From Mustelus asterias (lineage: Eukaryota), in NCBI RefSeq assembly GCF_964213995.1, contig NC_135808.1:22692001-22756000 (forward strand): 64,000 nt of DNA, given 5' to 3'. The notes below the pieces were generated by a model that was not told the DNA's origin, ran no database searches, and saw only the letters and a program-made list of their open reading frames with translations. This document shows, piece after piece, positions 23,449-28,276 of this stretch; positions within the stretch are counted from its first letter, which is position 1, and every line of letters begins with the position of its first letter. A program made the position numbers and the translations under genes.

Positions 23449-25326
23449 CGGTCTGCAGCCCCCATTCACAAGGGTAAGAAGGAGGGAAGAATTTACGTGT
23501 CAGCACTAGTAGGGGGCAGACAATGTGAGATGCTAGTGGACAAAGCAGCGTCCATATCTGTCACCGACCTACCCTTCCCCACTACAAATAAAATGATTTC
23601 CCTGACTGGGATAGGAGGGAACAAAACACCCGCCTACCTGAGCGAGACCACGTTAGTAGAGATAAATAATCTGTATATACCAATGAGGTTTTGTGTGTGC
23701 AAAAATAACGAGGGTACAATAATGGGAAATGATCTGATGAAAGAATATGAGATTCTGCTCGACTGTTGAAAAGGAGAATTAATCTGGCCAAGACAGGACG
23801 GTCGGAAAACTAGAACAGGGAAACTTACAAGTCACCTCGAAACTATTAAGGTAGCCACAGTCACCACCAGAAATTGGGAATTAGAAACAGGAGGGTTCGG
23901 AGCCATCTGTGCCCCTGTCCCCGGAATATGGTCGAAAACGAAGTTAGATACTGGTTTGACTAAAACAGACCCAATAAAGGTACCGGGACCAGAGCATAAG
24001 CCACACCGACAATACCCAATCAAACCCGAGGCAGAGAAAGCTGTAGTGGAGATAGTTAAAGGGTTAGTGGAAAGGGGGATTCTGAGAGAAACCACAAGCA
24101 CCACTAACTCCCCAACATGGCCAGTGAGCAAGTCTGACGGAAGCTATAGGCTCACGATAGATTACACCGGACTCAATAAAGTCACGTCCAAATTGCACCC
24201 CATCGTAGCAAGCCCTTCGACAATCCTGAATGGACTGAATGGAGCATAAAATATTCACAGTATTGGACATAGCCAACGGATTCTGGTCCTTACCATTTGT
24301 TCCTGAATCCCAAGACAAATTTGCCTTTCCAGTGGGTGAAAAGCAGTACACTTGGACTCGTTTACCACAGGGATTCCACAACAGCCCAGCTATATTCCAT
24401 AGAGCAATGAGTGACATCCTGAACAGAGTAGAACTGCCAGAGGGTAGTATGGTCCTACAATATGTAGATGATATCGTGATAGCTTCAGAGTCCAAGTCAG
24501 GACATCAAGAAGCCTTACATTTAGTACTGAATGAATTAAAAGCTGCAGGGTTAAAGGTGAGCCCCAAAATGGCACAAATCGGGAAAACACAGGTCCTATA
24601 CCGAGGACACGTTATATCCCAAGGACTTAAAGAAATGCCAACAGACTGACAGAAGGCAGTACAACAAATGCCGCGACCCGTCACCATAAGAGGGGTCAGA
24701 AAGGTGCAAGGACTATTCAACTATAGCCAGAGTTTCAACCCAGGGTTCACAAAATTAGCAGAACCCATACAGAGACTCGTCAGAGGGGGAAAACCAGCTT
24801 AAGATCCCGTAGAATGGGGACTCGAGCAGGAAGAGGCTTATCATAGAATCATAGAATTATAGAAACCCGACAGTGCAGAAGGAGGCCATTCGGCCCATCG
24901 AGTCTGCACCGACCACAATCCCACCCAGGCCCTACCCCCACATATTTAGCCTCTAATCCCGCTAACCTACGCATCTCAGGACTCTAAGGGGCAATTTTTA
25001 ACCTGGCCAATCAACCTAACCCGCACATCTTTGGACTGTGGGAGGAAACCGGAGCACCCGGAGGAAACCCACGCAGACACGAGGAGAATGTGCAAACTCC
25101 ACACAGACAGTGACCCGAGCCGGGAATCGAACCTGGGACCCTGGAGCTGTGAAGCAGCAGTGCTAACCACTGTGCTACCGTGCCGCCCCCTATACTGAAC
25201 TAAAAACTGACATCAGCCCCTGGACGAGGATTACCCAATTCTAATAAGGACTTCCATATCCATTGTAGAAATGAGAGAGGGTTCTATTCCGCCGTGGTAA
25301 CACAAGATCATGGCGACAGAAATAGA
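23449..25326 (+). pseudogene. pol: ERV-B pro-RT (disrupted; HE1 inserted at 24841-25189; RNase H and most of IN deleted)
   Basis: Degenerate protease LVDKAAS; RT QYPIKPEA, LDIANGFWS, QYTWTRLPQGFHNSP, YVDD. Confidence 0.93.
24841..25189 (-). mobile_element. HE1-type SINE, full length, inserted in ERV-B pol
   Basis: Complete head, core and tail; pol resumes (EQEEAY|TELK) on either side. Confidence 0.93.
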
Positions 25327-25582
25327 TGATGTGGAGATGCCGGCGTTGGACTGGGGTAAACACAGTAAGAAGTTTAACAACACCAGGTTAAAGTCCAACA
25401 GGTTTATTTGGTAGCAAAAGCCACACAAGCTTTCGGAGCTCCAAGCCCCTTCTTCAGATGAGTGGGACTTCTGAATTCCCACTAACCTGAAGAAGGGGCT
25501 TGGAGGTCCGAAAGCTTGTGTGGCTTTTGCTACCAAATAAACCTGTTGGACTTTAACCTGGTGTTGTTAAACTTCTTACTGT
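25327..25582. mobile_element. Penelope-like inverted terminal-repeat pair (palindromic) with minimal hammerhead cores
   Basis: About 110-bp near-perfect inverted arms centred near 25470; each arm has CTGAAGA-aggggcttggag(c/g)tcc-GAAA; same family as 5-162 and about 57010-57165. Confidence 0.75.
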
Positions 25583-26002: not shown

Positions 26003-27594
26003 GCAAAGACTGCAAACAAGAACGACTGGTGCGCGCGGGTTGATAGATAATATAACTTGTAAAGATTATATGAATTATCGTGTTAGGTTTGATATTTGAT
26101 CGTTGTGAATATGTATTTAATCGCGTATGTAACTGTACTACTTTGCATTGCCGCGACTGTAAATTTAACTGGATTGGAGGATAACTTGTTTTACAAAGCT
26201 CACATAAATTAAGACGGGAATCGAACTGTATGTTACCCGTTAGCACAATTGGTAGAAGCCCTATTTGTAGCCACCCCTGGGTGGACCCCTCATGACTTAT
26301 GTACTGTAGATACATCAGATACACCCTGCAAGGGACAAATTGGCAAATATAAAAGAGGTATACAGGGGAGACGTGTGGGACTTGTAAATCCCACAGATCC
26401 TGTGTTCAGGGGGTTCCAACAGGTGGGAGGAATAGCTTGTTCAGATACTGCAAGCTATCCGCTTTGTTTTATGGGGCAGGGAGGGGATGTGCCTATGCCT
26501 TGGTCCCAAAGAATTATTCCTGCGTACAGATGCAGTGTGTCCGTCAACATTGTCAGATTAATAAGGGACAGTTTACTTGCACTTGTGATGAACAGAAATG
26601 TCTCAATATAACTGCGGACAATGCAATGGAACTCACGTAATCTCAGCCAAATGGACATACCCATTTGATACTTACCAGGTGGTGGGGTCAAACGGGGAGT
26701 CAAGTAAACCGAACAATTGGCAATATGAACAAACTCATAATCAAGACACTAAATGTTACCGGGCTAAGAAGGGATATGTGTTCCTCTTCAATGGTACTTA
26801 CATGACAGAAACACCAAACCTCCCAAACCATTTTGCAGTCGGAACAATAGGACCACTGACTGTTCCATGCCCTCAGAAGGGGCATATTCGGAGGAGAATA
26901 GTAACTCGGGCTATCAGCAAAAATTCTGCGCTGACTGGGAAGCCCCGGGCACAATGGGATCCTCACTGGGATATGGGTTCCTTGGAGCCTTATCCCTGCG
27001 GAGGGGCGGGGGGTGGGCGGGGTGGGGGGGGGGGGTGGTGGGGGAGGGCAGCAGGAGTGATTAGTGCAAAGAATAGGAATCATATTGTTTGTGGACTAAC
27101 GGTCCTGGGAAACAGCACTTCAAAAGCACTGGAGGCTGTTAACCAAGAAATGGCTGAACTGAGATTATATGCACAGCAGACACAATATGCAGTGGACTAT
27201 CAGTTAGCACAACAAGGGGGAGTGTGTACAATTATAGGCAATAAATGCATAACCCATGTCACGGACGAGTCCTATAACATTACACAGGTCATCAATAGCA
27301 ACAGAAAAACAACTTGATAGCTTCAGACAGGGACCCAAGAAAAGATGTAACTGGCTGGAATGGTTAGTAGGGGGGTTCTGGGAGTCTTACCTATGACATG
27401 GATTGGTCATACTCGTTTCAATTGTAATTGTCTGTTGTCTGACTGTTGGATGCTTTAAAGTCTGTTTTAAAATAATGTTGGCTAGAATTGTGCCAGGAGC
27501 CAGTGTATACATCGAAGAAGAAAACCCGATGAAGATCCCCGAAGACATCAGAAGAAATGAAGAAGGAAAGAAGAACAAAGAATTATACATGTAA
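26003..27594 (+). pseudogene. env: ERV-B env (frameshifted): Cys-rich SU and a TM with a Cys-flanked internal fusion loop
   Basis: Acceptor ctaac…tttcctcaacacag| at 26002; basic cluster RRRIVTR; C-ADWEAPG…GYGFLGALSL…NRNHIV-C-GLTVLGNSTSKAL…AVDYQLAQQGGVCTIIGNKC; anchor LVILVSIVIVCCL. Confidence 0.88.
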
Positions 27595-27647
27595 AAATTG
27601 CTGGTCTAGGGATTAGTGAAACTCATAATCCGACCAAAAGTGGGGAC

Positions 27648-28276
27648 TGAAGTGGGAAAAATATACAGATGGGTACACATAAAATGGCTGTCTGGCACAT
27701 AAACAGTCACCTCGGAAAGAGACATTAAACAGGCACTGACGTTCAGTACAGACAACCACCTGAGATTAAAGGACAGACAGCTATTCAAAGTTCAAGATGC
27801 AGGAATCAAATCCTGCAGGAAGCCAGCCAAGGCTTGAGGCACTCTTTCGGATAAGGACAATAGGGTTGGATAACGAAATTAGCTACAGGTGGGATTGGAA
27901 TACCTAACTGCAGGAAAGCCAATTACTGTAAATTACGATATGAATAGATTGAAACTAAAACCACTGATGGCCACTGACAAAGGAAATGTATCCATTCATA
28001 GAACAATGTGATGTTAACATGTTGATGTCTGTATCTGTCCGTATTTGTCTACAGCAATGTGTTAACAATCGATCACCTACTTGATTACAACGATGTGATA
28101 ATGGCTAGATGTCCGGTCCAGCCATTGTGTAAAGGGTATAAAGATGGACTACTCCTATAGTCTCATTGAGAGAAGGTTTGTTGCTTGTTAGTGCCTTTTC
28201 TTCACGAAGCTTCGTTAAAATAAAACTGTATTCTTGAAACCTTCAAGCCTGACTCAGTGGTACACTTCCCACAACA
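27648..28276 (+). repeat. ERV-B 3' LTR (629 bp)
   Basis: Follows PPT aaaagtggggac; TG…CA ends with inverted TGAAGTGGGAA / TTCCCACAACA; AATAAA near 28220. Confidence 0.92.

Follow-up and report, generated by a model that had tools for sequence, protein, structure and literature searches.

A multi-copy shark endogenous retrovirus envelope with a cysteine-flanked fusion loop and affinity to filovirus glycoproteins

The window analysed here is a 64-kb stretch of the Mustelus asterias genome (contig NC_135808.1), which carries the broken envelope gene (env) of an endogenous retrovirus (ERV) on its plus strand. We consider it probable that the transmembrane subunit (TM) encoded by this gene belongs to a high-copy class I ERV family, likely of cartilaginous fish, with two cysteines (Cys) around the fusion loop and without the third Cys of the CX6CC motif; that the intact protein likely functions as a class I fusogen whose loop is closed by a disulfide and whose surface subunit (SU) is held non-covalently; and that its group of envelope proteins (Env) is a likely source of the filovirus glycoprotein (GP), with several places possible for the family within this group. 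The affinity to filoviruses is real, but the idea was already published in 2024. Two points are added to the published link: an SU that, to judge from its sequence, is of the type found in the Mabuya lizard proteins syncytin-Mab1 and Mab-Env2 (Mab1 and Mab2) and in the GP of Tapajos virus, a snake filovirus, and that appears to lack the Cys for an SU-TM bond; and a predicted fold of this SU that resembles the GP1 core.

The transmembrane subunit in the window

The env features are as follows (HR1 and HR2, heptad repeats 1 and 2; ISD, immunosuppressive domain).

26111..27594, plus strand: env, disrupted by several stops and frame breaks; its pieces lie in three frames and match an open-frame natural env at 60-77% identity
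26889..26909, plus strand: basic cluster RRRIVTR, the likely SU/TM cleavage site, read from the sequence
26927..27092, plus strand: Cys-flanked internal fusion loop, with Cys 26927, a Gly/hydrophobic core at 26957-26998 and Cys 27090
26999..27054, plus strand: expanded G-rich run within the fusion loop, exceeding the 10-nt form in 22 of the 29 pattern-matching loci (40 examined)
27090..27317, plus strand: HR1 with a sequon at 27111, ISD-like segment, CX6C-Ile at 27225-27251 and HR2 with a sequon at 27276 (Pfam and PDB matches)
27310..27594, plus strand: membrane-proximal region, Cys-rich anchor (about 27397-27460) and cytoplasmic tail (translation; 71% identity to residues 404-495 of a natural env)

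A preliminary description of this sequence had read these pieces as a single TM. The residues on which it relied, i.e. Cys 26927, the fusion segment GSSLGYGFLGALSL at 26957-26998, Cys 27090, the sequons NST (27111, in HR1) and NIT (27276, in HR2), and CX6C at 27225-27248 followed by Ile, all lie where it had placed them. The single reading holds for natural copies but not for the window, in which no single frame contains the basic cluster, the fusion segment with its preceding Cys, the HR1-CX6C part and the membrane anchor together. Frame breaks or stops occur in SU near 26470-26610, within the G-run, and upstream of both the first TM Cys and the membrane anchor; this copy is unable to make a full Env. 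Joining the frames was justified because natural copies hold both Cys in one frame, and a first Cys out of frame in intact copies, named beforehand as a finding that would speak against the description, was not observed (11 of 12 regions are in frame).

The motifs combine characters of several Env types. The HR1-HR2 segment matches Pfam PF22307 at 24.6 bits (E 2.3e-5), short of the 27-bit cut-off, and in two relatives a TLV_coat match was found at E 6e-4, below its cut-off. An ISD-like segment, a character of gamma-type Env, is degenerate and aligns without gaps beside the Cys loop. The third Cys of CX6CC, shared by strict and avian gamma-type Env, is lacking, as is the CXXC of the strict type, in place of which there is a single Cys in N-x-T-V-C-Y-P. 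At the residue level, the internal fusion peptide between two Cys that defines the avian type appears to be present, and the order HR1-CXnC-HR2 with two sequons is that of filovirus GP2. The cluster RRRIVTR is not a canonical R-X-K/R-R furin site; the relatives mostly have R-aliphatic-aliphatic-X-R, and two have R-X-K-R. The motif is presumably compatible with the wider proprotein-convertase rule or with SKI-1/S1P.

Genomic copies and relatives of the family

The 3.68-Gb genome yielded 3737 candidates, and the 150 that were scored are all 89-100% identical. Stop-free frames of 504-509 codons are present in nine of these 150. Twelve regions around long frames were fetched; both loop Cys share a frame with HR1 in 11 of them, and the long terminal repeat (LTR) pairs are 96.7-99.7% alike in seven. 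The natural env starts with a signal-peptide-like sequence, followed by a Cys-rich SU, the basic cluster, the Cys-flanked Gly/hydrophobic segment, HR1, the ISD-like stretch, CX6C-Ile and HR2, and it ends with a Trp-rich membrane-proximal part, an anchor and a tail. In its unexpanded form, the loop of natural copies has 39 residues between the two Cys, compared with 44 in filoviruses. The loop is in frame in natural copies and in other species, which rules it out as an artefact of frame joining.

Of 40 loci assessed for conservation, 36 have the first loop Cys (one Ser, three not called) and 38 the second (two not called). The third position of CX6CC is Ile in all 38 called loci, and the third Cys is absent from every family member with a readable motif. 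The Asn scored for avian gamma-type Env is found in 37 loci (one Asp, two not called). All named family members are from sharks and rays, including a 55% identical relative from Rhincodon. The top PDB match of the family Pol is the reverse transcriptase of murine leukemia virus (E 4.5e-107), as expected for a class I (gamma/epsilon-related) ERV. In a natural copy, the gag and pro-pol open reading frames (ORFs) are adjacent and in the same frame, i.e. one frame across a stop.

The G-run in the fusion loop is a hot spot of length variation, spanning 12-78 nt in the 22 expanded loci and 10 nt in the other seven; the remaining 11 of the 40, for the most part members of a second subfamily, do not fit the pattern. 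The variation may stem from slippage, from instability of G-rich sequence or from errors of assembly. Four loci including that of the window (L001-L004) have cores 99-100% identical, lie within about 2 Mb and differ in G-run length; they are likely products of segmental duplication. Related contigs occur in two sequencing runs guessed to be RNA, from which no conclusion on expression was drawn.

Specificity of the filovirus likeness

The gap-free alignment with Ebola GP2 on which the preliminary description was built could be reproduced on stored GP2 chains of Zaire ebolavirus: from Cys to Cys there are 17 of 46 identities, the same 45-residue spacing and both sequons in register (shared offsets 7 and 62). 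A phmmer search of the PDB with 27045-27314 placed the GP2 of Marburg, Ravn, Sudan and Ebola viruses on top (E 7e-12 to 1e-9), followed by CAS virus (CASV) GP2 (2e-7), syncytins (0.008 or worse) and the TM of avian sarcoma and leukosis virus (ASLV; 0.5). With a profile of the family, filovirus GPs in the PDB reached up to 71 bits, and among post-fusion cores of like length the scores were 51 for Ebola, 39 for CASV, 25 for syncytin-1 and 19 for ASLV. By these scores the TM is far nearer to filovirus GP2 than to ASLV TM or syncytins, in line with the proposal on ASLV. Two ordinary anamniote envs that served as controls put syncytins first in the PDB, the reverse of the shark family.

Several results weigh against reading this likeness as a filovirus signature. 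With a filovirus GP2 profile, median scores are 52.6 bits for the family (n=27, maximum 63) and 41.5 for ordinary envs (n=110, maximum 70), with values of 38 for Tapajos and 23 for Mab, but the four best ERV rows are ordinary env pieces, three of them from Callorhinchus. In a family search of 1.84 billion representatives, dozens of ordinary envs stand above the mammalian filovirus GPs among the best 150; the best filovirus rows score 65-72 bits, the first near rank 80. Over the ungapped stretch, five ordinary envs have 19-22 of 47 identities and four filoviruses 17-19 of 47, and most ordinary env rows contain the HR1 sequon. Identity, spacing and sequons were rejected as proof of filovirus kinship, since ordinary envs match equally well. 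What survives of the alignment as a filovirus sign is the extra Cys in HR1: the Cys pair around the fusion segment is the feature that discriminates the family from ordinary envs. It is common to the family, filoviruses, Tapajos virus GP, Mab1/Mab2 and a squamate group, and both Cys align across all of them.

P0119, P0139, P0157 and P0200 (Callorhinchus milii), CX6CC env pieces of the ordinary kind that lack the HR1 Cys, reach 65-70 bits with the filovirus GP2 profile, the top values among ERV rows.

The surface subunit

The SU is compact and Cys-rich, about 240 aa long, with no CXXC, no separate receptor-binding domain and no mucin region. Of the sequences that are not family members, Mab-Env2 (110 bits) and Tapajos GP (94 bits) belong to the few high-ranking rows of the best 150 in which the match reaches SU. 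BLASTP of a natural env aligned 486 columns with Mab-Env2 (24%, E 2e-25) and 166 residues with Tapajos GP, from the SU C-terminus through TM (31%, E 4e-20). An SU-only profile gave 42 bits for Mab1 and 39 for Mab2, while 485 shuffles reached at most 7.4; among 97 SU-side pieces outside the rows of the profile, family members aside, homology was confined to these two. Three unplaced ordinary-type SUs scored 6-17 bits. The SUs of Tapajos virus, the squamate group and filoviruses were not significant in the SU-only comparison (hhalign E 0.04-0.05; ordinary sets 0.4-0.9), that of Tapajos GP alone having an E-value of 0.049.

The third Cys of CX6CC is absent in the family, Mab, Tapajos and the squamate group alike. 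An N-terminal SU Cys and a C-terminal Cys in P/E-C-P occur together in the family, Mab and Tapajos GP, and both are missing in the squamate group, which suggests that the two may form a bond within SU. The SU sequence and the Cys pattern link the family to Mab1/Mab2 and Tapajos GP rather than to Ebola or Marburg viruses.

A whole-Env AF2 model was poor in its TM part (pLDDT 55). Foldseek found no match for it in the PDB at E 0.001 or better, the top rows being GP1 (E 0.015); in the BFVD its top rows were ChHV5 F-env (2e-6) and EAV-HP Env (8e-4), and the SU model had no match there. As modelled, the SU is closest to GP1, which is preferred over syncytin-2, and superposes on about residues 32-190 of GP1. 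The shark-family SU is predicted to fold like the receptor-binding core of Ebola GP1.

In one branch of the family (P0014, P0025, P0175, P0035 and P0074, from Scyliorhinus and others), the shared SU core is preceded by an additional N-terminal domain, Cys-rich and about 130-170 aa long, that resembles an added receptor-binding domain.

Phylogenetic placement and alternative origins

TM trees were calculated with 59 rows (loop and core, 126 columns) and with 33 rows (core only, 84 columns). The rows were chosen for likeness to the family and do not include ASLV, reptarenaviruses, tarsier sequences or mammalian gamma-type envs, and P0197 was shifted from the family to the ordinary group after inspection. 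In the loop and core tree, the family is one clade (98/92), Tapajos and Mab form another (98/89), and the two are joined at 93/71, with the mammalian filoviruses outside; the whole Cys-loop group, including one ordinary row, is set apart at only 67/85. A TM phylogeny had been proposed in advance as a check, and the free tree does separate the family from 27 of the 28 ordinary rows, but three approximately unbiased (AU) tests reject none of the placements of the family (p 0.26, 0.26, 0.47 and 0.54). They do reject Tapajos and mammalian filovirus GPs as one clade (p 0.016), which fits repeated capture from retroviruses.

That the family is the sister of the Mab1/Mab2 and Tapajos clade, its likeness to Ebola GP2 being ancestral and kept by slow change, is a real possibility that falls short of probable. 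The SU homology confined to Mab1/Mab2, the common loss of the third Cys, the common SU Cys pair and loops of 37-39 residues favour it, as do the tree with the loop, a core AU test without rejection (p 0.47) and a Mab and Tapajos profile with the loop, which puts the shark family first. In contrast, the tree support is unstarred, the three unplaced SUs reach 6-17 bits in that SU test, the match of SU with Tapajos GP alone is not significant, and the SU likeness may itself be ancestral or the histories of SU and TM split by recombination. The Mabuya proteins are homologous to the family in both subunits, including a Cys-flanked loop of 37 residues, but are only 24-36% identical, lack the HR1 sequon and have CX7C; Mab1 is a named host syncytin, whereas the shark family is a multi-copy provirus with no sign of domestication here. 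Syncytin-Mab1 is reported to be fusogenic. Tapajos GP shares the loop core GFL-x-x-I/L-T/S-LG, the HR1 sequon and the lack of a third Cys and of a mucin region, but groups firmly with Mab.

A direct sister relationship with the GPs of Ebola, Marburg, Lloviu and Mengla viruses, with SU diverged past detection and the third Cys lost after the split, is a tentative alternative. The core-only tree pairs them at 81/67, and PMC11521997 gives a posterior probability (PP) of 0.83. Both sequons and the HR1 start N-x-N-x-x-x-C-x-L are in exact register with mammalian filoviruses and not with Mab, the filovirus profile ranks the family median above those of ordinary envs, Tapajos and Mab, the SU model is closest to GP1, and the AU test gives no rejection (p 0.26). 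However, inclusion of the loop moves the family to Tapajos and Mab, no branch is starred, and four ordinary env pieces outscore the family with the filovirus profile. The GPs of these viruses and of Sudan virus align without gaps over HR1-CX6C-HR2 (16-18 of 46 identities), but they retain CX6CC with a GP1-GP2 bond and have a 44-residue loop of different core, a glycan cap and a mucin domain; no SU sequence similarity to the family was detectable in this set.

Membership of the family in the ordinary gamma-type Envs of anamniotes (CXnC subtype), with loop Cys that arose in parallel and no special filovirus tie, is improbable. Ordinary envs reach equal ungapped identity, the HR1 sequon is common in non-mammalian envs according to PMC9967133 and PMC8278194, the AU tests give no rejection, and in the ESM Atlas the top clusters are TLV_coat envs (0.92-0.94), above filovirus GP (0.89). 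The CXnC subtype is known from Chen et al. (bioRxiv 2021.11.23.469661), which includes envs from six cartilaginous fish. Against this stand the aligned loop Cys of the family, filoviruses, Tapajos, Mab and squamate envs, the PDB ranking reversed relative to the controls, the free trees and an SU model that favours GP1 over syncytin-2. ASLV and alpha-like envs also have a Cys-flanked internal fusion peptide, an HR1 glycan and no CXXC in SU (PMC3758190 and PMC13568524), but ASLV has CX6CC, its TM core scores low with the family profile, and the shark-family Pol is of class I. Henzy & Johnson 2013 define the avian gamma-type and include its filovirus likeness; further related work is found in PMC3419519, PMC8498845, bioRxiv 2023.10.07.561363 and bioRxiv 2021.11.05.467493.

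The reverse direction, acquisition of env by a retrovirus from a filovirus-like virus, is highly improbable: similarity cannot show direction and Hotzel leaves both possible, but the related envs of sharks, rays, lizards and snakes are embedded in retroviral sequence, no ectodomain of this kind is reported for fish filoviruses in PMC11521997, and the separate Tapajos and mammalian clades fit repeated capture from retroviruses. An endogenous filovirus element was ruled out, the env being flanked by retroviral pol and LTR and not by filovirus genes.

Relation to published envelopes and proposed mechanism

PMC11521997 (Nino Barreat & Katzourakis 2024) describes filovirus-like ERV ectodomains from Chiloscyllium, Scyliorhinus, Amblyraja and Leucoraja and includes Rhincodon in supplementary rows; these ectodomains are sister to mammalian filoviruses (at the PP given above), and Tapajos groups with Mabuya and Varanus (PP 1). 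The placement is repeated in PMC11398700. The published ectodomains share with the family the host type, the retroviral context, the env position and the best viral matches (6BP2_B, Mengla, Lloviu, Tapajos and CAS virus), and the two are presumably identical. The passages covered here treat the ectodomain core only and do not discuss SU homology, the missing third Cys or the SU fold. In the full-text literature, with subscription journals mostly outside coverage, no paper was found on the SU of shark envs or on a tie to syncytin-Mab1 beyond the ectodomain. The earlier suggestion that this lineage is near the donor or recipient of the glycoprotein exchange is supported in part by the Cys-flanked filovirus-like TM and has been published by others; the lineage need not be the closest to the donor.

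By analogy with class I fusion proteins, the intact Env would be cleaved at the basic cluster, releasing TM with a short leader; the compact SU, GP1-core-like by prediction, would bind a receptor; the fusion loop, presumably disulfide-closed as in filoviruses and ASLV, would insert; and HR1 and HR2 would refold into a six-helix bundle. The N-terminal SU Cys is likely paired with the C-terminal SU Cys and not with TM, and a covalent SU-TM link would be absent.

Whether the filovirus glycoprotein stems from a retroviral Env has long been asked, and what has been published on sharks rests on a short domain with moderate support. With many natural copies and shark and ray relatives at hand, SU structure can join the test of this origin. 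The Env group that includes the shark family is the likely origin of the filovirus glycoprotein, which was likely acquired in full and on more than one occasion. A bolder version seems rather unlikely: filoviruses would twice have captured a whole Env (SU and TM) from one ancient group that survives in thousands of shark copies, no living protein would be structurally closer to the GP1 receptor-binding core than the shark SU, and one SU Cys would have switched between pairing with TM, as in Ebola virus and ASLV, and forming a clamp within SU, as in sharks, the Mabuya syncytin and Tapajos virus, so that an Env of gamma-type descent would be fusion-competent without an SU-TM bond. If the GP1-like SU and the missing bond hold, shark ERVs would share one Env type with the GP of a snake filovirus and a placental syncytin of lizards, an exception to the view, found in PMC11575397, that an ISD is always accompanied by an intersubunit disulfide.

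The provirus and other elements in the window

The env is part of a provirus in the order LTR-gag-pro-pol-env-LTR, all on the plus strand, with these further features.

20809..21399, plus strand: 5' LTR (TG...), end approximate; blastn match to the 3' LTR, 79% over 632 columns
21400..21422, plus strand: degenerate primer-binding site, from the post-LTR sequence in the window and one natural copy
22016..23448, plus strand: broken gag; pieces 77% and 66% identical to a natural gag with zinc knuckle
23449..25335, plus strand: broken class I pro-pol; Pfam RVP and RVT_1, tblastn/blastn to a natural copy
27637..27647, plus strand: polypurine tract, immediately 5' of the 3' LTR
27648..28276, plus strand: 3' LTR, from the LTR-LTR match

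The primer-binding site is, we presume, of the tRNA-Ser type; no tRNA genes were found in the window. Short repeats interrupt pro-pol, which lacks the greater part of RNase H and integrase. The two LTRs are identical at 515 of 611 aligned bases (91% in a 300-nt core), with differences and gaps concentrated in their 5' halves, and no target-site duplication at the 3' LTR matches the 5' flank, in contrast to the closely similar LTR pairs in seven of the 12 other regions. Age, or recombination between two subfamilies, may explain these features of the window provirus.

Two further ERVs are present. A remnant on the minus strand (12706-14853) combines an integrase piece, 47% identical to the family Pol, with an ordinary CX6CC gamma-type env TM, which has syncytins as top PDB matches and served as a control. 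The other, on the plus strand (about 46700-56300), has LTRs 94.5% alike, a gag zinc knuckle and a broken pol 50-57% identical to the family Pol; its env at 53404-55565 is different, has no Pfam match and, as an impression, seems unlike gamma-type Env in its long helical layout. A 335-codon ORF at 39917-40924 matches rhodopsin-family G protein-coupled receptors (7tm_1, E 1.9e-18), and a broken-looking stretch at 10600-11300 is similar to it (78% repeat pair). LINE-type repeats with endonuclease and reverse transcriptase pieces lie at 17609-18589, 44876-46737, 57250-59009 and 61411-63799, besides many short interspersed repeats.
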